A stretch of 64,000 bases of DNA from Ignavibacteriota bacterium (lineage in GTDB: Bacteria; Bacteroidota; Ignavibacteria; Tepidaquicellales; Tepidaquicellaceae). The DNA lies in assembly GCA_963748665.1 (NCBI GenBank), contig CAVVJW010000036.1:19655-83654 (forward strand), in the 5' to 3' direction. Numbering within the stretch: the first letter of the stretch is position 1; each line of letters starts with the position of its first letter. This document shows positions 6,164-37,499 of the stretch, piece by piece. Under the pieces are notes generated by a model. The model was not told where the DNA came from. It saw only the letters and a program-made list of their open reading frames with translations, and searched no databases. The translations under genes and the position numbers were made by a program.

Positions 6164-7420
6164 ATGAAAAAATCTGAACTTAAAGAAACGAAATCAAAAA
6201 GCGACAACTTTAATTCAAAAAGTTTAACGATGGAAAATATCAAAATATCAGAAGATGTTTACGAAAAACTGGCAGATGCGCTTGATGCACTTCCAGCCGG
6301 TTTTACCAGAACTCCCTCTAAATCGGAAATAAAACTTATCAAGATGGTCTTTTCTCTTGAGGAGGCTTTTGTTGCAAGTACTTTAAGCCGCAAGCTCGAG
6401 ACAGCTGACGAAATTGCCAAACGGCTTGTTCTTCCCGTAGATAAAGTGACCGAATTGCTCGAGGGAATGATACCTCGTCGTATGGTAAAAGCTGACACGC
6501 TTGCCCTTGAGACAGGTGTTAAAGGACTTGGGAAAGTAGAAGCAAAACCTGGTCAGACAAAAGAAGAGAGCGTGAAGAAATACAGACTCTTTCCTTTCCT
6601 TGTTGGCTGGTATGAATCGTATCTACAGGAGGTTAAGCCTGAGACTCCAGAATTTGCAAGAATTTTTGAGCAATATGTTATAGAAGGCGGAGGCGAAAAA
6701 ATCTTTGCCCCGCGTCCAGGACCGCAGGGCACCATCCCATACCGTGGCTCTCTAAAACCTGAGTGGCTAAAAAAGGAACCTCACAACGATATTGACGCCC
6801 ACTTCCAGCGGCACGACCGTTTCCTTGTACTCGATTGTGTGTGCAAGAAAGAGAAAGCTGCTGCTCACGGACATAGCTGCCACATGCCCAACAAGCGATG
6901 TGGTTTCGTAGGTATGCCTCCCGTGGTTCCTCTCTCTGAAAATGTGCTAAATCGCGAAGAAGCCATCAAACTCTGGAATGAGTTAGATGCCATGGGAACA
7001 ATGATGATTCAGGGTTTCTATGGATTCACAATGGGAGCGGAGGAACCTCAGTTCGTCGGCGGCTGTCACTGCTGCGGTTGTTGCTGCACAATATTGCAGG
7101 GAGGTCGTATGGGCAAACTTACTGAATCTGTTGAGAGATCGAATTACCGTGTAGTGAAGGATTATGACAAATGTACAAACTGCGGGGAGTGTATCAGGCG
7201 CTGCCAGTTCTTTGCACATAAATGGGAAAAAACTAAAGATGGAAAAATATCGGTTTATGACAGAGATAAATGCGTCGGATGTGGATCCTGCGGTCAGGGA
7301 TGTTTATCGGGTGCGCTCCACCTTGAACCGGTTTCCGAGGAGGAATGGTTACAAGTTCCTTCAAGTTTTATTGGATGGGAAGAAGCGCGATTAAAGAATA
7401 TGGGAATGATTAAGGAATAA
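6164..7420 (+). CDS. Cys-rich Fe-S protein 1 (N-terminal helical domain plus C-terminal 2x[4Fe-4S] ferredoxin motifs); family unassigned
   Basis: CTNCGECIRRC...CVGCGSCGQGC (two CX2CX2CX3C motifs). Additional CVCKKE..C..C and CHCCGCCC (7064-7087) clusters. The N-terminus DVYEKLADALDALPAGF is shared with 10150-11275. The true start may be ATG 6230 (MENIKISEDVY). Confidence 0.7.
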   Translation: MKKSELKETKSKSDNFNSKSLTMENIKISEDVYEKLADALDALPAGFTRTPSKSEIKLIKMVFSLEEAFVASTLSRKLETADEIAKRLVLPVDKVTELLEGMIPRRMVKADTLALETGVKGLGKVEAKPGQTKEESVKKYRLFPFLVGWYESYLQEVKPETPEFARIFEQYVIEGGGEKIFAPRPGPQGTIPYRGSLKPEWLKKEPHNDIDAHFQRHDRFLVLDCVCKKEKAAAHGHSCHMPNKRCGFVGMPPVVPLSENVLNREEAIKLWNELDAMGTMMIQGFYGFTMGAEEPQFVGGCHCCGCCCTILQGGRMGKLTESVERSNYRVVKDYDKCTNCGECIRRCQFFAHKWEKTKDGKISVYDRDKCVGCGSCGQGCLSGALHLEPVSEEEWLQVPSSFIGWEEARLKNMGMIKE

Positions 7421-7717: not shown

Positions 7718-8596
7718 ATGACAGTTAGCACCATTTTTAATGTTGTAGTTATAATCTACTCGATGTCCAATTTGGCTTCACTGGGGATGGAACTCAATAT
7801 ACGTGAAACCATCAGGTCGCTGAGCAACTTCAGGCTTATCATTTTTATCTTGTTTTTCGGTTGGATTGCAGGACCGGTTTTTGCACTACTTCTTGCAAAA
7901 GTCCTTCCGATGGATACTTCCTACGGCACAGGACTGATTATTTCCAGCCTTGCTCCGGTTGCACCGTTCTTTCCAATTCTGATGCGAAAATCAAACTCAG
8001 ATAAAGACTTTGCGGGCGCACTAATGCCATTAGCCATGGTTGCCACGGTGGTCCTGCTGCCTTTAATTGGTTCATTTATGATTAAGGGCCTTACGGTTAA
8101 TATGTGGTCTTTGGCCAAACCACTTCTACTGTTGATATTGTTGCCGCTTGTTAGTGGAATTTTGCTAAGATTGTATGCAATCCGTTTTACCGACAAAATT
8201 TTTCCTGCTATGAAGCGTCTTGCCGGTATCACTACTTTGATTGCAATGCTTTTTGTACTGGTACTTTATTTTCCTGACTTCATCAGTATACTCGGTAGTT
8301 TTGCCATTGGCGCTCACATTATCTTTGTGTTCGGAATTATGTTTATTTCGTATTACTTAAGCTTCGGTCTAAAAAAGAATCAGGCCAGTGCCATAGCCTT
8401 GGGTATGGGTAGCAGGAATCCTGCCGCAATGCTGGTAGTGTATATGGCCTTACAAATCACAGATCCAAAGATGTTGCTCATGATACTGCTTGCTGGTCCG
8501 ATACCGGGAATTGCATCCTATTTTATGACAAAATATTTTGGTTCAAAAAACGTTAAAAAACAATTTATAAAATCCAAAAATGTAGAAAATTATTGA
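7718..8596 (+). CDS. BASS/ACR3-fold (bile acid:Na+ symporter family-like) permease 1
   Basis: 292 aa, polytopic. Contains LGMELN..., SSLAPVAPFFP and GMGSRNPAAML patterns typical of the SBF/BASS fold. Paralog of 11333-12211. Confidence 0.55.
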   Translation: MTVSTIFNVVVIIYSMSNLASLGMELNIRETIRSLSNFRLIIFILFFGWIAGPVFALLLAKVLPMDTSYGTGLIISSLAPVAPFFPILMRKSNSDKDFAGALMPLAMVATVVLLPLIGSFMIKGLTVNMWSLAKPLLLLILLPLVSGILLRLYAIRFTDKIFPAMKRLAGITTLIAMLFVLVLYFPDFISILGSFAIGAHIIFVFGIMFISYYLSFGLKKNQASAIALGMGSRNPAAMLVVYMALQITDPKMLLMILLAGPIPGIASYFMTKYFGSKNVKKQFIKSKNVENY

Positions 8597-8952: not shown

Positions 8953-10153
8953 ATGATTAAACATGTTGGACACGGGGGTATTATCCGCCGCATTGCGATA
9001 AATGTAGGTGCAGGATATCTTCCGGGAATAAATACCATTATTACAGGAGCCTCCCAGGCAGCCGGTCAGTTGGGATGGGAGATTGTCGGAATCCGCGATG
9101 GCTTCGAAGGCTTGTTGCACCCTGATCGTTATCCTGATGGCGGATTGCTTACACTCAGCCCACAATTGGCTGCAATACAGGATCCCTCCGAAGGAGGCAC
9201 TCTTGGCCAGGCACCAAAGGTAGATCCGTTTAACGACACCACTCATAATAAAGATGGCGTTGATCATTCTGATGAAATATTAAAAAGGCTGAAAGAAGAA
9301 AACATTGACGCATTAATTTCAGTTGTTGGGAACCAGGGACTCGAGATCCTGTATAAGCTCTCATCGAAAGGGATTACATACGGTATGTATTCCAAAATCA
9401 ATAGAGAATGACATTCCTGTTACTTCGGTTTCTTTTGGATTTAACAGTGCGATGAGCTTTACGATAGAAATGCTGATGCGTGCCAGACAAGCGGCAATAT
9501 CTGCCAGAAAGATAGCTGTGGTGGAAGTAATAGGTGAGCATGCAGGGTGGTTGGCACTCCAGTCAGGTATAGCAATTTCTGCTGATGCGGTGTTGCTGCC
9601 GGAAATACCTTGTAATCTTAATATGCTGGCACGGAGGCTGGACGAAAAGATTTCTTCCAGGAGACCATACGGATTGGTAGTAGTTGCCGAAGGCGTAAAA
9701 CTATACAAAAAACCACAGGAAGTTAAATCTGATTCAACACGTATAGTTTCACTTCCACCGGAGGCAACCGGCGAAGCAAGTGAACAAGTAATGATTACGT
9801 CTGAAAAGACAGCCGAGACACTTGCAGGGGAACTCCAGTTGCTTATTGACAGAGAAACTTATCCACTTATTGTCGGACCATGGGCAAGAGGCGGATCGCC
9901 CACTGCCGTTGACCTGCAACTGGGTATGGCATATGGTGCAGGGGCTATTCAGGCATTGAAAGCCTCAAAGAATGGGGTAATGGTTGCTTTTGTCCCTCCT
10001 GAAATTCAATACGTGCCATTGGAAGAAATAATTAACAAAGTAAGAACCGTTTCTGCCAACAGTGAATTCCTGAAGATTGCAGGATCACTTGGTATCTATT
10101 TCGGAAACTTTTCTTCAAAGAAAACTTTACAATCAGAGGAGGTAAAAAAATGA
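8953..10153 (+). CDS. PFK-family protein with degenerate kinase motifs, paralog C; one frame break
   Basis: ORFs 8953-9411 and 9323-10153 join at the G3 run 9370-9372 (LSSKG|LHTVCIPKSIENDIPVT). Motifs GAGYLPGINTII, VVGNQGLEIL, VVEVIGEHAGW, ARGGSPT. Confidence 0.8.
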
Positions 10154-11275
10154 ACAATTCCGATATATCAATAGATGTTTACGAAAGACTTGCCAATGTA
10201 CTGGATGCAACGCCTCAGGGCTTTCCAAGGATGAAATCAGGCGTGGAAATAAAACTGCTCAGGCTGGTTTTTTCTCCCGAGGAAGTTTCTCTTGCAAGTT
10301 ACCTGTCCACAACCTATGAATATCCTGCTGTAATTGCCAGACGTGCTGGCATTGGTGAGGATGATGCCATCGTTATATTATCAGGCCTTATTTCAAGGAA
10401 ACTTGTTCGTATGCAAGGTCCGCCATCTTACCCGGGTATGCCTGCTCCCCCTCCCGGAAAAGATTCGCTCTTCCGGCTTGGTCCTTTTATGATAGGATGG
10501 TACGAAGCATGTATGCGTGTAGAAGGCAAAGAATTTGCCGAACTATTTCATCAATATATGGAAGAGGGTGGCAGTGAAAAAATCCTCGCTCCACGTCCCG
10601 GTGTATTAGGTGTAGTTCCCGTACGGGGATCTCTCAAGCCAGAATTGATGGCAACGATGGAACCGCACCTCGATATTGACGCTCATTTAAAGCGGCACGA
10701 TCGTTTTCTGGTAATGGATTGTGTGTGTAAAAGGGAGATGGAGGCCCTTGGGAAAAGATGATAGCCGCTATCCGTTAAAACGCTGCGGATTTTTAGGACT
10801 TCCTTCAAGTGTACCGCTCGGAGAACATGTACTCAGCCGGGAAGAAGCGGACCAGCTTCTTCGAAAGCTCGAAAAAATGGGGCATGTAAGCAATGCAGCT
10901 TACGGATTTCAGATGAGCGCTGAAAGCCCGCAGTACGTGGGGGGCTGCAACTGTGACCGTTACGCTTGCGGGGTATTTAACAATCACTTTCCCAGCCAGG
11001 CTTCAAACTACCGCGTAGTCAAAGACTACAAAAAATGTACTGCCTGTGGTATTTGTATCGATCGCTGTCCCACGTATGCGCATATCGATGGTAATCGTGA
11101 GGACGGTATGCCGGAATATATTCGCGAAAAGTGCATAGGTTGTGGTGTCTGCGTTATTGCGTGCGATCCTGAGGCGCTTGAATTGGAGCCGGTATCGGCA
11201 GACGAGTGGTTTTATACTCCTTCAAGTTTGGAGGAATGGGAAGAACTACGAATTAAAAATTTGGAAACAAAATAA
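10150..11275 (+). CDS. Cys-rich Fe-S protein 2 (paralog of 6164-7420); one frame break
   Basis: ORFs 10150-10761 and 10721-11275 join at the A4 run 10753-10756 (CVCKREMEALGK|DDSRYPLKRCGF). CTACGICIDRC...CIGCGVCVIAC. The ATG overlaps the paralog C stop (ATGA). Confidence 0.7.
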
Positions 11276-11332: not shown

Positions 11333-12211
11333 ATGGACAATTTCATTCAAATTTGTACCTCTTTATTCGGTCCGGTGGTATTAATATTCACCGTATCTAA
11401 CCTGTTTGCCATGGGCTTACAAGTAAAAATGCCCGAAGTCCTCCAAGTGTTTAAAAACAAAAAATCACTTTTGTTGATATTCATATGGGGCTGGATAGCA
11501 GGGCCTGCGTTAGCTTGGCTTATAAAAATAATTCTTCCTTTGGAAGAGCCATACGTTATAGTATTATTACTCGCCAGTCTGGCACCAAGCGCACCATTCC
11601 TTCAGGTGATGGTTGTAAAAAGCCGCGGGGACATGGGCTTTGCAGGAGCTTTCATACCGCTGGTTGCAGTTGGTACTGTTGTGCTGATGCCATTGATGGC
11701 TCCCCTATTAATAAAGGGACTGACAATCAGCACCTGGGCACTCGCTAAACCGCTACTCCTGACCATACTTATACCGCTGATCATCGGAGCTGCGATAAGG
11801 AATTATTCAGATAAAGTTGCAACTAAGATTTTCCCGGCATCTAAGCTGATTGCCCTTATTTCCACATTAACGACTATCATGTTGTGCTTTATAATATACG
11901 GTCCAGCGATGCTCAACACGGCGGGCAGCTTTGCCCTCCTGTCAATAACACTGTTTATGGTAGTAATGGGACTGATAACTTATCGCTTCGGTTTCGGCCT
12001 GAAACGGGCACAGAGTAGTGTGATGTCACTGGGAATGGGCACTCGTAATATCGCAGCGGTTTTAGCCGGAGCTCTTGCCATTCCAAACGCTGATCCGCGT
12101 ATAGTAACTATGGTTATTATGTACACTTTGTGGTCCTTTATACTTGCCCTTATTGTAGCTAATATTTATGGTAGACTCGCAGACAAGTCAGGTGAAACAA
12201 ATGAGAATTAA
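11333..12211 (+). CDS. BASS/ACR3-fold permease 2
   Basis: 292 aa. Collinear with 7718-8596 (ASLAPSAPFLQ, GMGTRNIAAVLAG). Confidence 0.55.
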   Translation: MDNFIQICTSLFGPVVLIFTVSNLFAMGLQVKMPEVLQVFKNKKSLLLIFIWGWIAGPALAWLIKIILPLEEPYVIVLLLASLAPSAPFLQVMVVKSRGDMGFAGAFIPLVAVGTVVLMPLMAPLLIKGLTISTWALAKPLLLTILIPLIIGAAIRNYSDKVATKIFPASKLIALISTLTTIMLCFIIYGPAMLNTAGSFALLSITLFMVVMGLITYRFGFGLKRAQSSVMSLGMGTRNIAAVLAGALAIPNADPRIVTMVIMYTLWSFILALIVANIYGRLADKSGETNEN

Positions 12212-12562
12212 AGTATATAGTTAAGAGTGAAAACGTGCACAAAATGATAATGAAAGAATTCCACCACTTAGGCACTAAGGACACGACGTAGCAAGAACTT
12301 TAAACAAAGAAAAGATTTGCATACTGAAAAGAGACAATTGTGACTGAATTATACTGATTAAGAGGTTTTTAGGGTTAGAGATTAATTGAATACGGATTTA
12401 CACAGATTTAACGAATATACACTGATTTTAAAGGTTTAAAAATATAAATTTATTAATTGTTACATAGAAAATTAGAGAAGAGATATAAATGAATTACACG
12501 AATTTTACGATTTACATAAATTGGAAGAACGAATCGCAAGTGATTTATTTGAGTTTTAATAA

Positions 12563-13666
12563 ATGAAAATAAAGCAAAAAAAAATTATGATTAAGCAAAC
12601 TCAGGACAACTCAGTTTATGATATTACCATAAGACTATTAATCCTTTTATTAATCGTTGCCTGGTGTCTGATGATTATATATCCATTTATCAGTGTCATA
12701 TTATGGAGTCTTATACTCGCACTGGCAATGCATCCGTACCACAGCAAACTGTCAAAAAAAATGGGCGGGAAACCCAAACTTGCATCTTTTATAATAGTTG
12801 TCTCCATTCTGATAATTGTTATACTTCCCACGGGTCTATTAATTTATTCACTTGCTGACGAAGTTAAGGCATTTAAAGCAAATTATTTTAACGGTACAAT
12901 CATCATTCCTCCTCCCACAGAAAACGTTAAAGAATTTCCAATAATCGGAGGAAAACTTTTTGAGTTCTGGCAAAATTTATCTGCTAACATAGAACCAATG
13001 CTGATTAAGTATAAGACACAACTTTTAGATATTGGAATCAAGGTAGGAAAGGGAATATTGAGTGCGGCAGGCAGTGTAATTCAGATTTTATTGTCTCTTA
13101 TTATTGCCGGTATATTGTTGAATGTCGGCGGAATAGGAGAATCTATACGAAAATTTTTCAGGAAGGTGGGCGGCAATAAAGGTGACGAACTTGCTGACCT
13201 TACGCTCAAGACAGTCGGCAGTGTAGTTAAAGGCATTCTTGGAGAAGCACTCCTTCTCGCTCTGATGCACGGAGTTGTTTTCATGCTTGCAGGCATTCCC
13301 TATGCAGGAATATGGACGTTGGCGGTGTTTGTCATGGCGACACTTCAAATACCAATATATTTTGTAACAGTACCAATAATGATTTATATTTTTGGGACGA
13401 AAGATTTAATGCCTGCGATATTATGGGTCTCGACCATGGTAGCGGTCAGTGCTTCAGACAACTTTCTCACACCGCTTATGCTTGGTAAACGTGCTCCTGT
13501 ACCAATGCTGGTGATATATATAGGCGTGATTGGCGGATTCATTTTTTCTGGTTTTATAGGACTTTTTACGGGAGCAATAGTTATGTCAGTTGGTTATAAT
13601 TTATTTGTCGGATGGATTAATTCAAACGATGCGGAAGTTCAGGAAATAGAGGCAGTAAATAAATAA
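12563..13666 (+). CDS. AI-2E family (PerM/UPF0118) transporter
   Basis: 367 aa, polytopic. The C-terminal pattern SDNFLTPLMLGKRAPVPMLVIYIGVIGGFIFSGFIGLFTGAIV is typical of the family. Confidence 0.75.
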   Translation: MKIKQKKIMIKQTQDNSVYDITIRLLILLLIVAWCLMIIYPFISVILWSLILALAMHPYHSKLSKKMGGKPKLASFIIVVSILIIVILPTGLLIYSLADEVKAFKANYFNGTIIIPPPTENVKEFPIIGGKLFEFWQNLSANIEPMLIKYKTQLLDIGIKVGKGILSAAGSVIQILLSLIIAGILLNVGGIGESIRKFFRKVGGNKGDELADLTLKTVGSVVKGILGEALLLALMHGVVFMLAGIPYAGIWTLAVFVMATLQIPIYFVTVPIMIYIFGTKDLMPAILWVSTMVAVSASDNFLTPLMLGKRAPVPMLVIYIGVIGGFIFSGFIGLFTGAIVMSVGYNLFVGWINSNDAEVQEIEAVNK

Positions 13667-13692
13667 CACGAATTACAAACAAAACATACAAT

Positions 13693-14205
13693 ATGATGAA
13701 AATAAAAGAAAATTTACCTGAAGGAAAACAAACAGTACTTGGGCTTTATGTAACAGCGAAGGAAGCTTACGAGCAATGGATTGAAAATCCAGAGAAGATA
13801 AAGATTATTGACGTTCGCACTCCCGAAGAATTTATTTTTGTGGGTTATCCGGCGATGGCATGGAAAATTCCTGTTGGTACACAATCGTATGTCTGGGATG
13901 CTGAAAATGAAAAGTTCCCGATGTGTCTTCTGCCTGATTTTGTTTCCAGAGTGAAGGAAATTGCAAAACCAACTGATACAATAATGGTCACGTGCCGTTC
14001 AGGAGGACGAAGCGCAATTGCAGTCAATCTGCTTGCCAAAGAAGGATTCACACAGGCATTTAACGTTGTTGACGGCATAGAAGGTGATTTGGTGGATGAT
14101 GAAACCAGCGTATTTCATGGGCAGAGACTGAAGAATGGCTGGAAGAATTCAGGATGTCCTTGGACGTTTAAACTGACACCCGACATGTTGATACTTCCGC
14201 GATAA
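13693..14205 (+). CDS. Single-domain rhodanese (sulfurtransferase)
   Basis: 170 aa. Contains IIDVRTPEEF and the active-site loop CRSGGRS. Confidence 0.8.
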   Translation: MMKIKENLPEGKQTVLGLYVTAKEAYEQWIENPEKIKIIDVRTPEEFIFVGYPAMAWKIPVGTQSYVWDAENEKFPMCLLPDFVSRVKEIAKPTDTIMVTCRSGGRSAIAVNLLAKEGFTQAFNVVDGIEGDLVDDETSVFHGQRLKNGWKNSGCPWTFKLTPDMLILPR

Positions 14206-14258
14206 TATAAATTGTAAGATGAAAAAGATAAAATTATATTTTAAATAATTTAATGGGC

Positions 14259-14280
14259 GGCCAGGTCTGAATAACAAACA
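14259..14280 (+). promoter_or_regulatory. Candidate shared cis-element (22-mer), copy 2, 50 nt upstream of the DszB-like gene
   Basis: 19 of 22 identity with 7661-7682. Confidence 0.25.
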
Positions 14281-14329
14281 ATTGCTCAAACCACTGGTCA
14301 GGTTACGAGCAACATAAAGGATATAGATA

Positions 14330-15530
14330 ATGAGCAAAGAAACTGAAAAAGTTAAAGTTACAACTTTTGAAAACACAAAGTTGAACGTGGTTAAGTTGAA
14401 TTGGAAAGAGGTGTATTACACCAATTGTCCGCTGGTGTCTGCCAGTAACGTGGATGAAGGCCTGGGCCTGACCAAGAAAGAGTATAAGAAGATCGGGGTG
14501 AAGTTTGCCTACATGCGTTCGACCCCTGAAACCGATTGGTATCCCCACTACATTCACAATCAGGAAAATCTTATCCGCTTCGGTGGTTTGTTTCCACCTA
14601 TCGAAGTCCACGCAGATATCCGTCGGACCAAACTTCTGGGGGTAACACAGATGCCGGCCGAAGGCGGCGTTATGATGGTACGCGCCAAGGACGATATCTA
14701 CCGGATGGCTGATTTAAAAGGCAAAAAGATCGGCATTTCCAAGAGTATGAACCAGATCAAAAACGACTGGTGGCGCATTCAGGAACACCAGGGGATCGAG
14801 TTGATGCTTCGGATGAACGGCATGACCATGGACGATATTGAATTGGTTGAGTTTCCTTACGCAGATGACTGGTATAATCTACCGGAAATGATGAAAGCAA
14901 CCATGGAACAATCGATTGATCTGTGGCTGGCGCGTGACCACAAGCGCGACCTGGCTTTCCGTCCGCTGGAAACCGCCCTGGAAAAAGGAATCATCGATGC
15001 GATGTACATGCAAACCAAGCCGCTTCAGCAGGTCATCTGAGGCGACGGGTAAGTTTGCAGCAATCGAGGACCTCTCCCGCTATCCTGACTGGCGCCTTCA
15101 GGTGGCTAACATTCCTGCGGCTATCACGTGTACCGATGTCATGGCCAAGGAACACCCTGAACTCGCTGTTACATTTATGAAAGGTATGATCCGGGCCGGT
15201 CGCTGGGCAAATCAGAACAAGTATGCTGCAGCTGAAATTCTCGACCAGCAGACCTTCTACCGCGACATCGAGGCTACTTACCAGGGCATTAGAGATGTTG
15301 ACCTGGTGCCCAACCTTTCACCTTTGAATCTCGCCGCTGTTAATATCGGTAAAGAATTTATGCTAAGTCATGGTTACATCAAGAATGATTTTGATGTAAA
15401 CGAATGGGCTGCCCCTGAATTCCTGGAAAAAGCAGCAAGAGAATTATTGGAAGAAGAATGGAAGAAACGATCAACGGCAAAACTTCCACAAACAGCAGGA
15501 ACATTGGAATCAGGCGGAAGAATTGGGTAA
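14330..15530 (+). CDS. DszB-like (2'-hydroxybiphenyl-2-sulfinate desulfinase family / SsuA-fold) protein; one frame break
   Basis: ORFs 14330-15040 and 14916-15530 join at about 15038. Recalled Rhodococcus DszB blocks match: YTNCPLVSA (YSNCPVPNA), IRFGGLFPPI (TRFGGEIPPL), TKLLGVT, DLKGKKIGISKS (DLAGRRIGVSAS), EATGKFAAIEDL, NEWAAPEFLEKA (DQWAAPEFLNNS). Confidence 0.65.
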
Positions 15531-15582
15531 TAAATAAGTCGTGTAAAACAAAATTAATTTGCCAACTTAAAAACAAATAATT

Positions 15583-15777
15583 ATGGCAAAGGAAATAAAA
15601 AAAAGCGACGGTCCGGCCTGTGCATGCGGCAGGGGTGACCTGTATGATGAATGGAAGAAGTTGAATGAAGGCAAAAAGGAAGAAGGTTTTGAATCAACTG
15701 ACCCCAAACGTTCAGATGATGTTGTCAAAGACGAACATAAGCAGGAACAGGCCAAAAATGAAACAAAGAATGAGTAA
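15583..15777 (+). CDS. Small charged hypothetical protein (64 aa)
   Basis: ORF only. Lys/Glu-rich with a CACGRG element, sitting in an operon-like position. No family recognised. Confidence 0.3.
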   Translation: MAKEIKKSDGPACACGRGDLYDEWKKLNEGKKEEGFESTDPKRSDDVVKDEHKQEQAKNETKNE

Positions 15778-15917
15778 AGATTAAGATTGAGTGGCGCCAA
15801 AGATATTAAATTAATGGTTGGTGCCATTTTAAAAATGAACTCTATCGGCAGAGTTATGGGCAGAACAAAGTTTCAGAATATACATGTAAAATTTATAAAC
15901 CATGTTAATGTAAGAAT

Positions 15918-16727
15918 ATGAGTGTAGAAATCAAAACAGATAGTTTTTCAACGATACTGGTTGACAGGAGAGATAACGGATTGGTAGTAGTAACACTAAA
16001 CAGACCAGAAGAAGGTAACGCCGTTAACACAGATATGGGGCTTGAACTTCTTGATCTCTGGACTGACCTTGTACGCAACAATGACGGACTCCGCTGCGTC
16101 ATATTAACCGGAGCAGGTGAAGAAGCATTTTGTGCCGGCGGAGATATGAAGCAACGAAAAGGAATGTCGGAATATGCATGGCGGCATCAACACGAGATAT
16201 TCGAGCAAGCTTTATGGACTATGATGGAATGTCCTGTTCCGGTCATAGCTGCTGTCAACGGCAAAGCATTTGGCGGCGGGCTTGAAATGATTCTTGCAGC
16301 CGATTTTGCATATGGAGTTGACAATGCCAAGTTATGGTTCCCGGAAGTGATGATAGGAATACTGCCTGGTGTGGGCGGCACAACTACATTGCCGCGTATA
16401 GTTGGAGAGCATCGTGCTAATGAAATCATATTAGCAGGTGGTGCATTTGGTTCTGCCGAAGCGCTGGAATGGGGTATATTCAATCGTGTTTGCAGTATAA
16501 AAGAATTGATGCCGGCTGCGATTGCAACTGCCGAAACTATAGCAGGTAACGCTCCTCTGGCAGTGCGTCAAGCCAAGAAAGCAATACACGAAGGTCTGCA
16601 AATGGATGTACGTACTGCACTTCGTTACGAAGTCGAATGTTACAACCGTCTGACGGGAACTGAAGACAGAGCAGAAGGTACACTGGCATGGAACGAAAAA
16701 CGCAAACCCGTTTTTAAAGGACGGTGA
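15918..16727 (+). CDS. Enoyl-CoA hydratase/isomerase (crotonase) family protein
   Basis: 269 aa. Contains NRPEEGNAVN, FCAGGDMK and AAVNGKAFGGGLEMILAADFAY. Confidence 0.85.
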   Translation: MSVEIKTDSFSTILVDRRDNGLVVVTLNRPEEGNAVNTDMGLELLDLWTDLVRNNDGLRCVILTGAGEEAFCAGGDMKQRKGMSEYAWRHQHEIFEQALWTMMECPVPVIAAVNGKAFGGGLEMILAADFAYGVDNAKLWFPEVMIGILPGVGGTTTLPRIVGEHRANEIILAGGAFGSAEALEWGIFNRVCSIKELMPAAIATAETIAGNAPLAVRQAKKAIHEGLQMDVRTALRYEVECYNRLTGTEDRAEGTLAWNEKRKPVFKGR

Positions 16728-16786
16728 ATTTGTACCCGAACATAACAAGTATAAAATATTAAATTTTTAAAATTAAAATATAAAAA

Positions 16787-18496
16787 ATGAAAGTAATTAT
16801 TATCGGAGGAGTTGCAGGCGGAGCATCGTGTGCAGCACGTCTGCGCAGGCTTGATGAAGAAGCCGAAATTTTAATGGTAGAAAAAGGACCTTACATTTCG
16901 TACGCAAACTGCGGACTGCCTTACCACGTGGGTGGTGTGATTGAAAAAGAATCCAACCTTCTGTTGGCAAATGAACAGATGTTCCATGCGATGTTTAATA
17001 TAGAAGTACGAACACGCTGTGAGGCTGTCGAAATTTCACCGAAGGAAAAGACTGTAAAGTTGAAAGATTTAATTAAGGGCGAGATCACTACTCATTCTTA
17101 TGATAAACTTGTTCTTTCCCCGGGTGCTGTTTCTTTTCATCCGTCATTACCGGGCATTGACCTTCCCGGTATTTTTCACGTGAGAACTGTTCCTGACGTA
17201 AGAGAAATACGTGAGTGGGTTGAAAAAGGAAATCCGTTTCTTGCAGGAATGTACAAGTATTCAGGATTTCAGGCGATGAGACCTAAGACGCGGGCAGTTG
17301 TTGTTGGCGGAGGGTTCATCGGACTTGAGATGGCAGAAAATCTTGTGCATCGTGGTTTTGAAGTAACGCTTTTACAGAGGGGAGACCAGGTATTGGCTCC
17401 TATGGATTTAGAAAATGCACGTGTAGTTGAATCTCTGTTAGTAAAGCACGGTGTTAAACTTGCTCTAAACGACGGAGCCGCAGGTTTTAAACAGGCTGAG
17501 AACGGTGCCATAAATGTAGAAACTGATTCAGGAAAAACATATAAGGCTGACGTAGTTATACTTGCCATAGGTGTCCGTCCTGATACAACTCTGGCAAAAA
17601 TGGCAGGACTAGAAATAGGTGAACGCGGAGGAATCCGTGTAGATGAACATATGCGTACAAGCGACACGGATATATTTGCAGTAGGTGATGCGGTTGAAGT
17701 TAAAGATTTTGTTACGGGGCAATGGAGTTTGGTTGCTTTGGCAGGACCTGCAAACCGTCAGGGACGTATTGCAGCAGACGTTATCGCAGGACGCAATTCA
17801 ACTTATCGCGGTACACAGGGTACTTCAATTATAGGTCTGTTCGGAGCCGCTGCTGCCTGGACCGGGGTCAGCGAAAAGACACTAATAAAAAACGGTGATA
17901 CAGATTATGAAAAGATATACCTGTATCCTAATTCACATGCAGGTTATTACCCTGGTGCTAAAACAATTGCAATGAAAGTTATATTCAGAAAATCAGATGG
18001 CAGACTTTTGGGGGCACAGGCGCTCGGTTTTGACGGAGTTGATAAACGTATAAGTGTAATAGCTGGAATGCTGCAAATGGGTGCTTCAATATACGACCTT
18101 GAAGAAGCAGAACTTTGTTACGCTCCCCAGTTTGGAAGCGCAAAAGATCCTGTAAACTTTGCGGGTATGGTTGCTGCTGATGTTCTCAGAAACGATATGC
18201 CTCTTACACACTGGGATACTGCAAGAAACGGATTCCTTCTGGATGTACGGGAACCTATGGAATTAGCAGTAGAGAATGTTCCTGGTGCGGTAAACATTCC
18301 AATGGGTCAGATAAGAGCACGTCTTGATGAACTACCGCGGGACAAAGAGATAAATGTAATTTGCCGTTCAGGCGGACGCGCTTACTATGTTACGCGGATT
18401 CTATTGCAGAATGGCTTTAAAGCTAAAACTATATCTGGCGGCATGATTTCACTCGCACATAATTATCTGCTTGATGCTAAATTGAAAGAGGAGTAG
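16787..18496 (+). CDS. CoA-disulfide reductase / NAD(FAD)-dependent persulfide reductase with C-terminal rhodanese domain
   Basis: 569 aa. Contains IIGGVAGGASCAARL, the redox Cys in SYANCGLPY, and a C-terminal rhodanese loop CRSGGRAY. Confidence 0.85.
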   Translation: MKVIIIGGVAGGASCAARLRRLDEEAEILMVEKGPYISYANCGLPYHVGGVIEKESNLLLANEQMFHAMFNIEVRTRCEAVEISPKEKTVKLKDLIKGEITTHSYDKLVLSPGAVSFHPSLPGIDLPGIFHVRTVPDVREIREWVEKGNPFLAGMYKYSGFQAMRPKTRAVVVGGGFIGLEMAENLVHRGFEVTLLQRGDQVLAPMDLENARVVESLLVKHGVKLALNDGAAGFKQAENGAINVETDSGKTYKADVVILAIGVRPDTTLAKMAGLEIGERGGIRVDEHMRTSDTDIFAVGDAVEVKDFVTGQWSLVALAGPANRQGRIAADVIAGRNSTYRGTQGTSIIGLFGAAAAWTGVSEKTLIKNGDTDYEKIYLYPNSHAGYYPGAKTIAMKVIFRKSDGRLLGAQALGFDGVDKRISVIAGMLQMGASIYDLEEAELCYAPQFGSAKDPVNFAGMVAADVLRNDMPLTHWDTARNGFLLDVREPMELAVENVPGAVNIPMGQIRARLDELPRDKEINVICRSGGRAYYVTRILLQNGFKAKTISGGMISLAHNYLLDAKLKEE

Positions 18497-18506
18497 AAAA
18501 AATAAG

Positions 18507-18749
18507 AAAAGAACTTATTTTGAGTCGCACTTTTCTTGTTCATACGATGTGAAAAAATTCTATGCGACAGGAGACGTGTTTAAAAATTTCAGTAATTTAA
18601 AGATTGCCGATTTAAAACACTCATACAGATTAGGGTTACGGTTTGTCTTTGAACCGAATGAGAAAATAAACCTGCGTGTTGATTTTGCAAAAACAAAAGA
18701 AGGAAGCGGAGTTGGTTTTTCAATGGGTGAGGCTTTTAAAATTTGTTAG
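18507..18749 (+). pseudogene. Internally deleted relic of an Omp85-family gene (paralog of 21844-23049)
   Basis: 18507-18570 matches 22245-22310 and 18563-18749 matches 22866-23049 (FYATGDVFKNFSNLK...RVDFAKTKEGSG). About 570 nt is missing between short ttcta(c/t)g..acagga microhomologies. Confidence 0.75.
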
Positions 18750-18836
18750 AAGAGATAAGCAAAAATAACAATGAATCGGAATTAAGGAAGAAAATACATA
18801 ATAAAGTTTATGATAAAAAATATAGATAATTATTAA

Positions 18837-19994
18837 ATGGAAATTACTAACTTTGTTTGGGGCGGACCTGTTCACAAATTGCAGCTTAGACTGAAACTGG
18901 AAAAAGAACCTGCGTCTGTCGTCAAAAGAAAAATAATATTCTTTTCATTATTTGCATGGATTCCTCTTTTATTAATATGCATTGTACAATCAACTGCCTG
19001 GAATCCTTCGCTTAAAATATCTCTGCTTACAGACTACGTGGTATGGGCAAGGTTTTTTGTGGCATTACCCATACTTTTTATGTCAGAAAGTTTAATTAAT
19101 CTGCACGTCGGAGATTCGCTCGCCCATTTCTTAAAATCCGGTATTATTGCCGAAAACAATATTTCAGAATATGAATCCCTTCTGACTAAACTGAATAAAA
19201 TCAAGGATTCAAAAATCACAGAAATAATAATTCTGATTTCAGCGTATGCAATTGTGCTTTTATTCTGGTGGAACGCAGACCAGAAAAAGTTTCTTTTAAC
19301 ATGGCTTTTTGACAGCAAAGGAGTAATGAACGCTGCAGGTTACTGGTATTATTTTGTGAGCGCTCCGCTATTTTCTTTCTTTCTGTACAGAATGTTATTT
19401 AAATTTTTTCTGTGGGTAGGATTCCTTTTTAAAATATCGAAAATGGATTTAAACCTGTATCCGACTGACCCTGATTTATGTGCAGGATTAAGATTCCTCG
19501 GGGTTGCGCAGATATTCTTTGGTTTGATCGGACTTGCACAAAGCTGCGTTGCTTCGGCAGAGATTGCAAAATGGATATTAACGAATAATTATCAATTATC
19601 CGACTATTATGTTATTATTGCCTCAAACATACTTGTATCCACTTTTTTGTTCTTCTCGCCCATACTTTTATTTATGGGAAAACTCAGCAGGACAAAATTA
19701 AAAGGCATGATGGATTACGGAGTAGTCGCACATAAATATATACGTTCGTTTGACAACAAATGGGTTAAAGGGAATAATCCGGATAAAGAACAAATACTCG
19801 GAACTTCAGATATTCAGTCACTTGCTGATCTGTTTAACAGTTATCAGGTTGTTGAGAAAATGAGATTGATTCCAATGGATATGTATCAGATAATATATTT
19901 AATACTGATTGTCGGTGTACCGTTTTTGCCATTGATAACATTTGTGATTCCATTAAATGAAATTTTCAAAATTCTTTTAGAACATTTCTTTTGA
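18837..19994 (+). CDS. Polytopic membrane protein, unknown function
   Basis: 385-aa ORF with several hydrophobic segments. No family recognised. Confidence 0.5.
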   Translation: MEITNFVWGGPVHKLQLRLKLEKEPASVVKRKIIFFSLFAWIPLLLICIVQSTAWNPSLKISLLTDYVVWARFFVALPILFMSESLINLHVGDSLAHFLKSGIIAENNISEYESLLTKLNKIKDSKITEIIILISAYAIVLLFWWNADQKKFLLTWLFDSKGVMNAAGYWYYFVSAPLFSFFLYRMLFKFFLWVGFLFKISKMDLNLYPTDPDLCAGLRFLGVAQIFFGLIGLAQSCVASAEIAKWILTNNYQLSDYYVIIASNILVSTFLFFSPILLFMGKLSRTKLKGMMDYGVVAHKYIRSFDNKWVKGNNPDKEQILGTSDIQSLADLFNSYQVVEKMRLIPMDMYQIIYLILIVGVPFLPLITFVIPLNEIFKILLEHFF

Positions 19995-20058: not shown

Positions 20059-20427
20059 ATGATAATAGTCAGGTTCAAAATGATTATGAATCCTAAGAAC
20101 ATAACAGAACTTTTAAATGTCATTAGGAACATATCTCAGGACGTTCGGAAAGAAGAAGGGTGTATCGATAATTTTATTTTTCAGAGTCTTAACGATGAAA
20201 ACGAACTTATTATGATTGAATACTGGAAGACAAAGACCCTCTTGAATAAACACTGGAAGACAACAAACTTCAGTGCTTTACTGGGTTTTCAAAATCTCCT
20301 CAACCAACCGATGAACATAGAAATCAATAATGTTTCCGGAACTCTTGGTCTGGCGGAAATAGAAAAATCAAGAATCGGGAATAAAGCAAAGAGTTTTGAA
20401 AAAGGTCTTAAAGTTTACAAAGAATGA
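20059..20427 (+). CDS. ABM (antibiotic-biosynthesis-monooxygenase/Dabb-fold) domain protein, paralog 1
   Basis: 122 aa. EEGCIDNFIFQSLNDENELIMIEYWKTKTLLNKHWKTTNF fits the ABM pattern E.W.s...H..t..f. Confidence 0.55.
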   Translation: MIIVRFKMIMNPKNITELLNVIRNISQDVRKEEGCIDNFIFQSLNDENELIMIEYWKTKTLLNKHWKTTNFSALLGFQNLLNQPMNIEINNVSGTLGLAEIEKSRIGNKAKSFEKGLKVYKE

Positions 20428-21260: not shown

Positions 21261-21653
21261 ATGATTATTGTAAAGTTTAATATGCTGATGAATCCGAAGA
21301 ACAGTAATGAAATTTTAAATGCTGTTAAGATTATTTCACAAAGTGTACAAATTGAGGAAGGGTGTATTGATATTTTTACATTCCGGAGTTTTGATAATGA
21401 AAATGAACTAATAATTATTGAATACTGGAAATCAATGTCTCTTTTAAAGAAACACTGGAAAACGTCTAACTTCGGTGCTTTACTGGGAATACAGAGTCTT
21501 CTGAGCCTCCCGATTAAAGTTGAAATCAACAAAGTAACAAGATCACTTGGTCTGAAAGAAGTTGAAAAAGTAAGAACAGATAAAAAAACAGGTGGAATTG
21601 AAAAAGGTCTTACGATTACGAATACTAAGAAAACGGTGATTCCAAATAAATGA
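21261..21653 (+). CDS. ABM-domain protein, paralog 2
   Basis: 130 aa. Collinear with 20059-20427 (EEGCIDIFTFRSFDNENELIIIEYWKSMSLLKKHWKTSNF). Confidence 0.55.
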   Translation: MIIVKFNMLMNPKNSNEILNAVKIISQSVQIEEGCIDIFTFRSFDNENELIIIEYWKSMSLLKKHWKTSNFGALLGIQSLLSLPIKVEINKVTRSLGLKEVEKVRTDKKTGGIEKGLTITNTKKTVIPNK

Positions 21654-23338: not shown

Positions 23339-23462
23339 ATTAAATGTATAAATAAATGAAATATCTTTTAAATTATTCAGAAAGGAAATTTAAATATGAA
23401 ATTAAATGTATATATTAATGAAATATCTTTTAAATTATTCAGAAAGGAAATTTTAATATGAA
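23339..23462 (+). repeat. 62-bp tandem duplication of the sulfatase RBS/start region
   Basis: 23339-23400 and 23401-23462 are near-identical (attaaatgtata.ata.atgaaatatcttttaaattattcagaaaggaaattt.aatatgaa). Each copy carries an ATG (23396 and 23458). Confidence 0.85.
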
Positions 23463-25830
23463 GCAGAAAAAAGAATTAAACCGTGAAGTTCTTCCGATAC
23501 CGGATAAAGCTTATAAAGGTCTTATCACGTATGATGCAAAAGACCCTGATATGAAATTTCCGCCTATTGAACAACTGCGCCCGCCAGATGGTGCGCCTAA
23601 CGTTCTTGTCGTACTTATCGATGATGCAGGATTCGGTTCTACGAGTGCATTCGGAGGTCCCTGCCATACACCAAATGCAGAAAAACTTGCAGCAGAAGGT
23701 CTGAAATATAATCGTTTTCATACAACTGCTTTATGTTCTCCTACAAGACAGGCACTATTAACGGGACGCAATCACCATTCAGCAGGAATGGGCGGTATTA
23801 CGGAAATTGCAACAGGTGCACCGGGTTACTGTTCAGTTCTGCCTAATACTATGTCCCCGCTTGCACAAACACTTAAACTTAATGGTTATTCAACTGCACA
23901 ATTCGGTAAGTGCCACGAGGTACCTGTGTGGCAAACAAGCCCTGCGGGTCCGTTTAATCAATGGCCTACAGGCGGCGGCGGTTTTGAATACTTCTACGGA
24001 TTTATAGGCGGAGAAGCAAATCAATGGTACCCGTCACTTTTCGAAGGTACAACCCCTGTTGAACCTGAAAAGACACCTGAGGAAGGTTATCATCTTATGG
24101 AAGATATGACAGACAAAACACTGGCATGGATTGGACAACAGAAGGCGCTTGCCCCTGATAAACCATTCTTTATTTATTTTGCTCCGGGTGCTACACATGC
24201 CCCGCATCACGTTCCGAAAGAATGGGCAGATAAATACAAAGGTAAGTTTGATGCAGGATGGGATAAACTTACGGGAAGAGACATTTGCACGTCAGAAAAA
24301 ACTCGGCGTTATTCCAAAAGACTGCGAACTAACTGCACGTCATAAAGAAATTCCTTCGTGGGACGAAATGCCCGAAGCATTCAAACCAGTGCTGCGCAGA
24401 CAAATGGAAGTCTATGCCGGTTTTATGGAATACACTGACCATCACGTGGGACGCTTGTTCGATTTCATAAGCAAACTCGGTATTATGGAAAACACTCTTA
24501 TTTATTATATAATCGGTGATAACGGTGCATCTGCAGAAGGTTCTATTAATGGCTGTTTTAACGAAATGAGTTATTTCAACGGACTGCAGTCTTTCGAAAC
24601 ACCTGAATATTTAACGGAGAGAATAGATAAACTTGGCGGACCGGAATCATACAACCACTATGCAGTAGGCTGGGCTCACGCAATGAACACTCCTTATCCA
24701 ATGGACTAAACAGGTTGCTTCTCACTGGGGCGGAACACGCAACGGTACTATCGTTCACTGGCCAAAAGGAATTAAGTCAAAGGGTGAGATTACGCTCACA
24801 GTTCTCTCACGTAATCGACGTGGCTCCAACGATACTTGAAGCTGCAGGATTACCTGAACCGCATTCCGTAAACGGTGTTCAGCAAAAACCTCTTGAAGGT
24901 GCAAGCATGCTTTATTCTTTTGACGATGCAAAAGCAGCAGAGCAGCACGAGACTCAATATTTTGAAATGTTCGGCAACCGCGGCATATACCACAAAGGCT
25001 GGACTGCCGTAACGAAACACGTTACACCATGGATTCAGGCACCGAGTATTCCGCTTGACGACGACGTATGGGAACTTTACGATACAACAAAAGACTGGAG
25101 CCAGGCAAAAGACCTTTCAAAGGAAATGCCTGAGAAGCTTCACGAACTTCAGCGCCTGTGGATCATAGAAGCAACCCGCTATAATGTGCTTCCAATAGAC
25201 GACAGAATATTTGAGAAATTAAATCCCGATACGGCAGGCAGACCTGTACTTATAAAAGGAAATACACAGCTCCTTTTTGGCGGTATGGGGCGTTTATCCG
25301 AGAATTGCATTCTTAATCTGAAAAATAAATCACATTCAGTAACTGCTGAAATCGTAGTTCCAGAAGGCGGAGCCGAAGGAGTTATTATTGCTCAGGGTGC
25401 AGATATTGGCGGCTGGAGTTTATACGCAAAAGGCGGTAAACTCAAGTACTGTTATAATTGGGGCGGACTAAAACACTTTTATGTTGAAGGAACAACTCCA
25501 ATTCCTGCGGGTGAACATCAGGTGCGTATGGAATTTGAATATGCAGGCGGTGGTTTGGGCAAGGGTGGAAAAGTTACACTGTTCACTGACGGCAAGAAAG
25601 TCGGCGAAGGTAAGATTGCTGCTACATTAGCAATGATATTTTCAGCCGATGACGGATGCGATGTTGGGAAAGATACCGGTTCTCCTGTTTCTGATGATTA
25701 TGGCTCGAAAGGGAACCACTTCAACGGAAAGGTTAAAGGAATACAACTTGCTATAGCAGATTCAGCAATAGATGAAGATCATTTAATTAATCCTGAAGAT
25801 GCCATAAGAATGGCAATTGCAAGACAATAA
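23458..25830 (+). pseudogene. Cys-type (formylglycine) arylsulfatase 1, about 790 aa, three frame breaks as assembled
   Basis: ORFs 23458-24345, 24131-24709 and 24715-25830 plus a bridging frame (QWTKQVASHWGGTRNGTIVHWPKGIKSKGEI). Contains LIDDAGFG and CSPTRQALLTGRNHH. Breaks at about 24271, 24700 and 24792. Confidence 0.85.
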
Positions 25831-26774: not shown

Positions 26775-26796
26775 GTTATAGAGAAAACGAATTAAG

Positions 26797-26830
26797 CCCT
26801 CAGCAGATAAAGAGATTTTCTGAGGGTTTT
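26797..26830 (+). terminator. Rho-independent-type terminator
   Basis: ccctcag (26797-26803) / ctgaggg (26820-26826) followed by tttt. Confidence 0.65.
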
Positions 26831-26905
26831 ATAATAGCAAATTTATAACGTATAGTAACCACTTAGATTTAATTTATAAACAAACAAAAAATAACAATTA
26901 AAATT

Positions 26906-27691: not shown

Positions 27692-27838
27692 AATCTATAA
27701 AATATGGTTTAATTGATTCTATAACTTTTATCAAATACTCAGATGTACTAACAATATGAGAAGGGACAAAACCAAAATGAGTAAAGCGGCTATTTCAATA
27801 TTGACATAAAGTAAAAAATAAAATCTAAAAAATTAAAC

Positions 27839-33825: not shown

Positions 33826-33870
33826 TTTTATTGAATTTTAATAATCAAGTTTTAAAATCATATTTCTCAG

Positions 33871-34686: not shown

Positions 34687-34869
34687 ATTTTTTTATTTGG
34701 GTTTAATATTTTAATATTTATTGATTATTGAACCTGTAAGCCCTGATATATCAAGCTAATTCGTAACATGAAGGCTCAGATTTTTACCTATCTTAATTCG
34801 ACTGTCAGGTAGTTGTCAAATAACATCACTATCAGGCAACATTTATTCTTTTTTAAATTTTTAAACGTA

Positions 34870-34913
34870 TAAACAAAGTGGGGTGAAGAAATTCGTCCGT
34901 TTCTGCACCCCAC
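34870..34913 (-). terminator. Hairpin directly after GRE2
   Basis: gtggggtg (34878-34885) / caccccac (34906-34913). On the minus strand it is followed by tttgttt. Confidence 0.65.
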
Positions 34914-34923
34914 AATACATTAA

Positions 34924-37410: not shown

Positions 37411-37499
37411 TTTATCAATCCTATATTTTTTAAAATTAATAATTCTTCAATGTTGATTAATATTCATTATAATGAAATTTACTGAGTTCAGATAAATTA

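Follow-up and report, generated by a model that had tools for sequence, protein, structure and literature searches.

The question raised by this locus is what a relative of DszB, the 2'-hydroxybiphenyl-2-sulfinate desulfinase of Rhodococcus (EC 3.13.1.3), may be doing among sulfur-transfer genes of an Ignavibacteriota bacterium. The DNA analyzed here, referred to as the window, is a stretch of 64,000 nucleotides (GenBank assembly GCA_963748665.1, contig CAVVJW010000036.1, positions 19,655 to 83,654), and the gene in question, termed DszBL, is located at positions 14330-15530 of this window. On the evidence of its homology, of its fold and conserved active site, of a location in the cytoplasm, of purifying selection and of its linkage to other genes, it is in our view an evenly balanced proposition that DszBL represents a DszB-type, oxygen-independent desulfinase-like enzyme working together with sulfane-sulfur transfer. 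The association of DszBL with sulfur-transfer genes suggests an unstudied mode of cutting C-S bonds without oxygen, and sequence comparisons point to a distinct, very widespread and mis-annotated DszB subfamily in a new genomic context. No paper on this clade or on its gene association was found in a literature search.

Relationship of DszBL to DszB

A comparison of the joined translation product of 14330-15530 with the sequences of the PDB yielded DszB (PDB 2DE2) as the best match of solved structure (E value 6e-13), with residues 71-368 of DszBL aligned to residues 58-360 of DszB (298 residues covered). In alignments with a DszB reference sequence identical to 2DE2_A at 365 of 365 residues, the overall identity between the two proteins amounts to 29%. 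The active site of DszB consists of Cys27, His60, Arg70 and Gly73 (PMC12168087), and these residues are paired with Cys33, His73, Arg83 and Gly86 of DszBL. Cys33 (codon 14426-14428) is part of a YYTNCP sequence and represents the N-terminal Y-(T/S)-x-C-P strand feature of the DszB type, His73 is encoded at 14546-14548, and Arg83 (14576-14578) is followed by Gly85-Gly86. The Cys, the His, the Arg, the two Gly residues and only three further positions are invariant in a set of 34 sequences with identities ranging from 88% down to 24%. A preliminary description of the window had noted the Cys/His/Arg context of DszB in the sequence and recommended checking the conservation of the triad, and both the alignment and the conservation analysis bear it out.

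A structural model (AlphaFold, AF2) was obtained for P0001, an intact ortholog of 94% identity, from an alignment that did not contain any DszB sequence (pLDDT 88.3, pTM 0.88). Comparing this model with the PDB by Foldseek placed three DszB chains in front (2DE3 and 2DE2; E value 2.4e-19, TM 0.67/0.76), followed by SsuA, TauA and THI5, with a best E value of 4.4e-14 for SsuA. DszB is the top match by sequence as well as by predicted fold, in agreement with the match proposed originally. The predicted fold of DszBL is of the two-lobed, type II periplasmic-binding-protein-like (NMT1/SsuA-like) kind, to which the members of the clade add N- and C-terminal extensions of their own and an FPYADDWYN insertion.

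Enzyme or binding protein

The neighborhood of DszBL was analyzed in 81 non-redundant loci, comprising those of 80 species genomes and the window itself, in which the open reading frames (ORFs) were clustered and the resulting families recounted with phmmer within 10 kb. A role of DszBL as substrate-binding protein of an ATP-binding cassette (ABC) importer that takes up sulfonates, nitrate or bicarbonate would be in accord with the current database names of the clade, which are exclusively "ABC transporter substrate-binding protein" or "hypothetical", with weak profile matches to NMT1 (24 bits over 64 residues) and SsuA_fam (TIGR01728), and with the presence of ABC transporter genes next to more distant relatives. 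However, the N-terminus of DszBL (MSKETEKVKVTTFENTK) contains no hydrophobic segment, and neither a signal peptide nor a transmembrane segment is predicted; the SsuA_fam score of 58.3 bits is below the cut-off, which is set at 163.5; and DszB outranks all binding proteins in both sequence and fold. Moreover, an ORF resembling an ABC ATPase (Walker A and LSGGQ together) was found in none of the 81 related loci, and the families BPD_transp and ABC_tran are absent among their recurrent neighbor clusters. A periplasmic binding protein was rejected on these grounds, and we consider such a role highly improbable.

The more distant relatives were followed in 79 metagenomic loci (L090-L168) coding for proteins of 28-55% identity to DszBL, which were chosen because the relatives with 44-46% identity, P0130 and P0124, are located on contigs of 2-4 kb. 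ABC ATPase genes are present in 31 and permease genes in 17 of these loci, and further neighbors code for TonB-dependent receptors, a pyridoxal phosphate-dependent enzyme of Cys/Met metabolism and a PNPOx-like protein. These loci contain cytoplasmic homologs with a YTICP Cys and an RxGG motif, often in two tandem copies, and also paralogs with signal peptides and another sequence in place of the Cys motif (e.g., EITAIAAQKG), so that the true secreted paralogs lack the Cys. They may represent a second, different sulfur-scavenging system based on the same enzyme fold. DszBL belongs to the cytoplasmic, Cys-bearing kind, and therefore the result that had been named in advance as speaking against an enzyme, namely best matches to binding proteins devoid of the catalytic Cys, was not what the analysis returned; the comparison suggested for separating the two alternatives by sequence, profile and fold comes out on the side of an enzyme. 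By sequence criteria, DszBL is a cytoplasmic member of the DszB superfamily rather than a transport binding protein. We propose as a rule for this fold that proteins with a Y-T-x-C-P Cys and no signal peptide are enzymes, and that those with a signal peptide but no such Cys are binders. The analysis also corrects the systematic mis-annotation of the clade as "ABC transporter substrate-binding protein" in the source databases.

Distribution and sequence constraint

With a threshold of E<=1e-5, a word-indexed search with DszBL retrieved 3010 proteins; the 120 top-ranking cluster representatives are 75-96% identical and about 395-415 amino acids long. The clade, whose members share 71-97% identity, is present in at least 555 species-representative genomes and is no rarity, in contrast to the preliminary description, which had regarded a DszB homolog in an apparent anaerobe as unexpected. 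The best 80 of these at least 555 genomes are all metagenome-assembled genomes (MAGs) of uncultured organisms, which are labeled as Bacteroidota, Ignavibacteriota, Acidobacteriota, Planctomycetota, Nitrospirota, Chloroflexota, Desulfobacterota, Gammaproteobacteria, Verrucomicrobiota, Kiritimatiellia and others and come from sources including soil, lake, groundwater, peat, river sediment and wastewater. After clustering of the library at 50% identity, a single full-length representative stands for the whole clade, and no other full-length relative exceeds 46% identity.

Between members from different phyla, the synonymous divergence (dS) is saturated at a protein identity of 72-90% and a ratio of non-synonymous to synonymous divergence (dN/dS) of about 0.04, which indicates a very strong constraint on DszBL. 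A dS of 0.16-0.28 separates the window from some MAGs of Bacteroidales and Ignavibacteria, and the rhodanese-DszBL-crotonase-CoADR block (CoADR, coenzyme A-disulfide reductase) is collinear with that of an Ignavibacteria MAG (L013) at 86.7% nucleotide identity. The low dS together with the collinearity of the four genes argues for recent transfer as well, and the gene set bears signs of horizontal transfer. True extra copies of DszBL occur in four loci only (L043, L048, L049 and L059). A second, shorter paralog that seemed to be present in many loci turned out to be an artifact, caused by the single-linkage method with which ORFs running from stop to stop had been clustered, the supposed paralogs of 280-300 amino acids being a ferredoxin-nitroreductase fusion and those of 600-1100 amino acids sigma-54 activators or read-through ORFs.

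Integrity of the gene in the window

The coordinates and the similarity given for DszBL in the preliminary description hold, but the assembled sequence does not contain the gene as one continuous ORF, and the frameshift had been missed. It consists of two ORFs (14330-15040 and, in the +1 frame, 15039-15530), and an alignment with four relatives identifies an extra A at position 15035 (GGTC[A]TCTGAGG), after whose removal the sequence reads PLQQVSEATGKF, including QQVSEATGKF, and matches the intact orthologs. Compared with its closest relatives, the window shows seven indels in coding regions (at 2128, 2290, 2991, 9361, 10121, 10745 and 15035), by which a glycyl radical enzyme (GRE) gene termed GRE1, a phosphofructokinase (PFK)-like gene, an Fe-S protein gene and DszBL are broken. 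Each of the seven is due to a single base inserted in the window, and in four cases a run of the same base is thereby lengthened, a pattern that resembles the signature of systematic consensus errors. The insertion pattern across the window suggests an unpolished long-read assembly, and many related MAG loci are fragmented in a like manner.

The alternative is a genuine pseudogene, i.e., a real frameshift at 15035 and a module decaying in this genome, whatever the family does elsewhere. The split of the gene as assembled, the position of the inserted A outside any homopolymer run and the disruption of several neighboring genes speak for it. It is opposed by the uniform nature of the seven insertions, by the similar fragmentation of other MAG loci and by the state of the corrected gene, which apart from the one base shows 94-97% protein identity to intact orthologs and a dN/dS of 0.07-0.17. 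Because of the other one-base insertions, the intact relatives and dN/dS values of 0.04-0.17, the frameshift is very probably an assembly error, and a pseudogene appears improbable.

Two further genes of the window, coding for a sulfatase (23458-25830) and a DcaP-like protein (28720-29989), also appear split. The 14-mer at the frameshift site (GCAGGTCATCTGAG, 15028-15041) has one copy elsewhere, in a variable stretch of the CoADR gene of L013 (13083-13096), and no further one in the window or the 168 loci; this recurrence is treated as a coincidence.

The sulfur-transfer module and its conservation

The features of the window that are relevant to DszBL are compiled in Table 1. The three flanking genes listed in the preliminary description, coding for a rhodanese, an enoyl-CoA hydratase and a CoADR-rhodanese fusion, are indeed present, and the genes of the module are separated by gaps of 26-140 bp. 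A scan of positions 12300-19000 for promoters and terminators showed no enrichment over shuffled sequences. The CoADR-rhodanese fusion contains the full set of Pfam domains and gives full-length matches in the PDB, scoring 507 bits with CoADR-RHD from B. anthracis (3ICR), 477 bits with Npsr from Shewanella (3NTA) and 448 bits with the CoA-persulfide reductase from Enterococcus (8A56).

Table 1. Positions of DszBL, the sulfur-transfer module and the GRE-associated genes in the window, with their recurrence in the 81 loci.
Feature	Position	Strand	Remarks
DszB-like gene (DszBL)	14330-15530	+	399 amino acids after removal of the extra base at 15035
Single-domain rhodanese	13693-14205	+	CRSGGRS active-site loop; 124 bp upstream of DszBL; homolog in 43/81 loci
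Small conserved ORF, 64 amino acids	15583-15777	+	GPxCACG(R/K)xDLY(D/E)EW motif, then acidic low-complexity tail
Crotonase-family enoyl-CoA hydratase	15918-16727	+	Both catalytic Glu motifs, GGGLE and FPEVMIG; homolog in 27/81 loci
CoA-disulfide/persulfide reductase-rhodanese fusion	16787-18496	+	Redox Cys in SYANCGLPY, rhodanese Cys in ICRSGGRA; homolog in 37/81 loci
AI-2E family transporter	12563-13666	+	26 bp upstream of rhodanese; homolog in 8/81 loci
SBF (bile acid:Na+ symporter family) transporter	11333-12211	+	Second copy at 7718-8596; family in 23/81 loci
Signal-peptide beta-barrel-like outer-membrane protein	25926-26774	+	No Pfam match
Bestrophin-like anion-channel homolog	26906-27691	+	In 6 loci
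GRE1, uncharacterized glycyl radical enzyme	301-2723	+	Broken by one-base insertions at 2128 and 2290; ortholog in 23/81 loci
PFK-family gene	2952-3986	+	After GRE1; same order in related loci
GRE-activating radical S-adenosylmethionine enzyme	3989-4945	+	After GRE1 and PFK-family gene
PFK-like gene and Cys-rich Fe-S protein, copy 1	5010-6137, 6164-7420	+	Followed by SBF transporter
PFK-like gene and Cys-rich Fe-S protein, copy 2	8953-10153, 10150-11275	+	Frameshifted; followed by SBF transporter
GRE2, intact	34924-37410	-	Relative of IseG/IslA/HpsG; 788 bits to 5YMR
Activase near GRE2	31716-32576	-	
PFK-family fragment near GRE2	32870-33415	-	
SDR near GRE2	33871-34686	-	
Amidohydrolase_2 protein near GRE2	37500-38585	-	

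A rhodanese and/or the CoADR-rhodanese fusion is encoded within 10 kb of DszBL in 63 of the 81 loci, and in 44 of the 49 loci with full flanks. The examination of neighborhood conservation that had been called for therefore finds a conserved sulfur module, with the crotonase being only a minority partner (27 of 81). Other recurrent neighbors are a LuxR-type regulator, which is usually divergent (26 of 81), SulP (25), a ferredoxin-nitroreductase fusion usually located directly downstream of DszBL (24), the family of the signal-peptide beta-barrel protein (23-28), the set of GRE1, PFK-like and activase genes (23-24), and a family of tandem rhodaneses (7 loci). They are joined by DUF202, bestrophin-like and ZIP-like proteins, outer-membrane protein families, pairs of GAF-kinases and response regulators, sigma-54 activators followed by an ABM-domain gene, GH63-like and GH13 enzymes, alcohol dehydrogenase and sulfatases. 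None of the partners of the module adjoins the distant relatives in the 79 metagenomic loci. No oxygenase of the luciferase-like or acyl-CoA-dehydrogenase-like type was detected among those representatives of the recurrent neighbor families that were scanned against Pfam, a scan that did not extend to every recurrent cluster.

The small ORF, which is about 55-65 amino acids long, adjoins DszBL in the window and nine related loci (e.g., L018 9764-9958, L041 9723-9929, L013 11226-11429). It lies upstream of DszBL in most of them and downstream in the window and L013, its frame contains stops as assembled in two loci (L013 and L045), it gave no family match, and it has not been called as a gene in most records.

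Some genes farther downstream recur as well. The region 25926-28681, which additionally codes for a pentapeptide-repeat protein, contains the same genes that trail the DszBL module in L007, L008 and others; in the window, it is about 7 kb away from the core, with genes for a membrane protein, two ABM-domain proteins, an Omp85-like protein and a sulfatase in between. Small ABM (antibiotic biosynthesis monooxygenase-like) genes near the module are found at 20059-20427 and 21261-21653 and also in L065 (5209-5640) and five other loci; in six related loci, the ABM gene directly follows that of a PAS/sigma-54 activator, and the CoADR-rhodanese gene is located downstream.

Proposed function

By analogy with DszB, His73, Arg83 and the backbone of Gly85-Gly86 would hold the -SO2(-) group, or a related sulfur oxyanion group, of the substrate, and Cys33 would give a proton to the carbon atom carrying it, with the C-S bond being cleaved without oxygen or cofactors and sulfite (SO2) being released. 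The reaction, the substrate and the order of steps that we infer for the most economical pathway would be as follows: an organic thiosulfonate or sulfinate is brought into the cell, the rhodanese removes any sulfane sulfur (RSO2S- -> RSO2- + enzyme persulfide), the CoADR-rhodanese fusion converts the persulfide to H2S with NAD(P)H as reductant, and DszBL frees the remaining sulfur as sulfite. The net outcome would be that sulfur is scavenged, or organosulfur compounds are catabolized, independently of oxygen in anoxic habitats. Sulfurtransferases are known to interconvert sulfinates and thiosulfonates, with reduction of the thiosulfonate sulfane sulfur to H2S also being known (PMC7545470), and the products of the three most constant genes would therefore together dismantle an organic thiosulfonate or sulfinate to H2S, sulfite and the carbon skeleton. 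Such a pathway fits a sulfur-scavenging superfamily, whose distant relatives are encoded beside importers and Cys/Met enzymes, as well as the rest of the window. The sulfinate or organosulfur role put forward in the preliminary description is backed in as far as the sulfur module is conserved and the enzyme type agrees; the crotonase as a minority partner and GRE1, which is no sulfonate lyase of known type (see below), do not support it.

It appears doubtful that DszBL, rhodanese and persulfide reductase constitute a complete, widespread pathway of anaerobes that degrades thiosulfonates and sulfinates to H2S, sulfite and carbon skeletons without oxygen or cofactors. The substrates of such a pathway would possibly include products of the reaction of sulfide with organic matter, and DszBL would in that case represent the first desulfinase from a context other than aerobic fuel desulfurization. 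In a bolder version, the linked GRE1, PFK-like and Fe-S genes would make the sulfinate from another precursor.

Several points weigh against a desulfinase function of DszBL. The assignment is derived from sequence, a predicted structure and gene context; the identity to DszB is low, and the aromatic sulfinate used by DszB is made by oxygenases that are absent here. We know of no natural pool of sulfinates or thiosulfonates identified in anoxic freshwater or soil habitats. The copy of DszBL in the window is frameshifted as assembled, and the loci are derived from MAGs, which makes the taxon labels and the lifestyle deduced from them uncertain. Furthermore, no partner gene is universal, rhodanese and CoADR fusion occurring together in only 17 of the 81 loci, and the crotonase, the nitroreductase, GRE1, the PFK-like and Fe-S genes and the small CxC peptide have no role in the model.

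Two other readings have to be weighed against a desulfinase. DszBL may be a non-catalytic cytoplasmic protein, its DszB-like pocket being used for binding only, and serve either as a carrier in sulfur relay, with Cys33 accepting a persulfide from the rhodanese, or as a sensor of a sulfur oxyanion such as sulfite or thiosulfate, as would be in line with its periplasmic-binding-protein fold, the sulfur-relay proteins as its most constant partners, the adjoining gene for the small conserved CxC peptide and the common occurrence of LuxR, sigma-54 and two-component regulators among the neighbors; the extreme conservation across phyla (71-97%, dN/dS about 0.04) is likewise typical of a constraint by partner interfaces. 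A relay or sensor appears unlikely in view of the full catalytic and sulfinate-binding set of DszB, which is invariant throughout the superfamily even in quite different gene contexts, of the lack of any DNA-binding or signaling domain in DszBL, and of the loss of the Cys in those paralogs of the superfamily that are binders. The same invariant set bears on the possibility of an enzyme performing another chemistry in the Cys/His/Arg pocket, such as protodecarboxylation of a carboxylate isostere, desulfonation with sulfate as the product, or the splitting of an intermediate that is linked to CoA or derived from a GRE: all residues binding the sulfinate oxygens in DszB are retained, and the strongest linkage is to sulfur-transfer enzymes and not to CoA or radical enzymes. 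Another reaction, which we regard as quite unlikely, would agree with the low identity to DszB (only 29%), the terminal extensions and the FPYADDWYN insertion peculiar to the clade, the linked genes for crotonase (27 of 81 loci), ferredoxin-nitroreductase (24) and GRE (23), and the SulP and bestrophin-like anion transporters encoded close by.

Glycyl radical enzymes in the window

The preliminary description had considered a connection between the module and the adjacent GRE genes, a superfamily including sulfonate C-S lyases. The best matches of GRE1 in both PDB and NCBIfam are hydroxyproline dehydratases, with scores of about 410-476 bits that are far under any equivalog cut-off. The sulfonate lyases IseG, IslA and HpsG are characterized by the glutamate of a CxE motif and by two Arg and one Gln residues anchoring the sulfonate (PMC13450708). 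The Cys loop of the GRE1 orthologs reads GACVG, which means that the glutamate found in the CxE motif of 1,2-eliminases is missing from GRE1, and the positions of the two sulfonate-binding Arg residues are occupied by Gly (Ala in one ortholog) and Asp. An Asn is found at the aligned Gln position, as is also the case in the GRE2 reference, which has its Gln one residue earlier. With neither the CxE glutamate nor any of the two anchoring Arg residues, GRE1 is not a sulfonate lyase of known type, and its function as a C-S lyase feeding or paralleling DszBL was rejected on the basis of these active-site residues. GRE1 is highly conserved (e.g., L001 1362-3788 and about 20 other loci) and always followed by the genes for the PFK-family protein and the activase.

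GRE2 retains both Arg residues and the CxE motif and scores 965 bits with the HpsG-type NCBIfam model, whose cut-off is 1000. As judged from sequence, the GRE2 locus (31716-38585) probably represents a desulfonation locus of the 2,3-dihydroxypropane-1-sulfonate (DHPS) or isethionate type. It is located on the opposite strand, with GRE2 more than 16 kb away from the DszBL module, and no IseG/HpsG-like GRE stood out among the recurrent neighbor families of the 81 loci, in which no search with GRE2 itself was made. What stands of the supposed GRE link is a sulfur-rich region with sulfatases, an anaerobic sulfatase-maturating enzyme (anSME)-like maturase, SulP and GRE2; the GRE actually linked to the module does not provide it.

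Four PFK-family genes are present in the window (Table 1), including one after each GRE, and no published explanation for a cluster of such genes beside GREs was found in the literature. The unit of PFK-like, Fe-S and SBF genes looks tandemly duplicated; its Cys-rich Fe-S proteins contain a GGCHCCGCCC motif and two 4Fe-4S motifs, and the PFK-like/Fe-S unit recurs in some related loci. The three sulfatases and the SulP transporter mentioned in the preliminary description were all located. On the minus strand, the distal part of the window codes for an N-terminally short SulP protein (48872-50233), a multiheme cytochrome/TPR protein (52097-54400), a cytochrome b (54955-56298), a MetA-pathway-like outer-membrane protein (56620-57624), two sulfatases (57675-59561 and 62433-63887) and a SPASM-domain protein resembling anaerobic sulfatase maturases (59970-60911).

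Comparison with known systems

Among the known systems, DszB (PDB 2DE2/2DE3) shares the type II binding-protein fold, the cytoplasmic location and the active-site set with DszBL. Unlike DszB, DszBL is about 35 residues longer, has no DszA or DszC nearby, is associated with rhodaneses and a persulfide reductase, and occurs in genomes carrying GREs and other markers of anaerobes. Because of the 29% identity, the missing Dsz oxygenases and the different partners and hosts, it is not regarded as a DszB ortholog. A close sequence relationship to the characterized proteins DszB, TdsB or BdsB is not apparent, the clade being set apart from all its other relatives by a gap (at most 46% identity). An ortholog belonging to the 4S pathway of dibenzothiophene degradation was rejected on account of this identity and the absence of DszA and DszC from the scanned neighbor families, and hydroxybiphenyl sulfinate is unlikely to be the substrate of DszBL. 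No anaerobic relative of DszB is reported in the best-ranked recent literature on desulfinases.

The binding proteins SsuA, TauA and NMT1-THI5 have the overall fold, weak profile matches and the database name in common with DszBL, which differs from them by the lack of a signal peptide and of ABC partners, by a score below the cut-off and by the presence of the catalytic Cys. Regarding the operons of CoAPR (8A56), Npsr (3NTA) and CoADR-RHD (3ICR), the fusion encoded in the window is a full-length member of the family and is likewise accompanied by a single-domain rhodanese. The combination of a persulfide reductase-rhodanese fusion with single-domain rhodaneses is also known from cst-type operons. 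No description of a persulfide reductase operon for reactive sulfur containing a DszB-like gene was found in the literature, and the DszBL gene set is further distinguished from those operons by genes for porin-like proteins, for SulP and SBF transporters and, in many cases, for a GRE.

Besides DszB, hydrolytic desulfination is known for the 3-sulfinopropionyl-CoA desulfinase Acd of Advenella, which has an acyl-CoA dehydrogenase fold and acts on a CoA thioester. Its fold is unrelated to that of DszBL; a CoA-thioester substrate like that of Acd could in principle provide a role for the crotonase encoded next to DszBL, and no gene for an acyl-CoA dehydrogenase-like protein or a CoA-transferase recurs in the DszBL loci.

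The distribution, conservation and context of the DszBL clade would be new to specialists of the sulfur cycle, with the chemistry itself being put forward as putative. DszB is biotechnologically important but slow, and DszBL would, if the proposed function is correct, represent an oxygen-independent and cofactor-free relative of it. Oxygen-free C-S cleavage of oxidized organosulfur compounds is at present known mainly from Xsc, from the lyases of sulfolactate and cysteate, and from sulfonate lyases of the glycyl radical type. With a hydrolytic enzyme of the DszB type, conserved at 71-97% identity in at least 555 species of bacteria of soil, sediment, lake, groundwater and wastewater habitats, the anoxic sulfur cycle would gain a new route.

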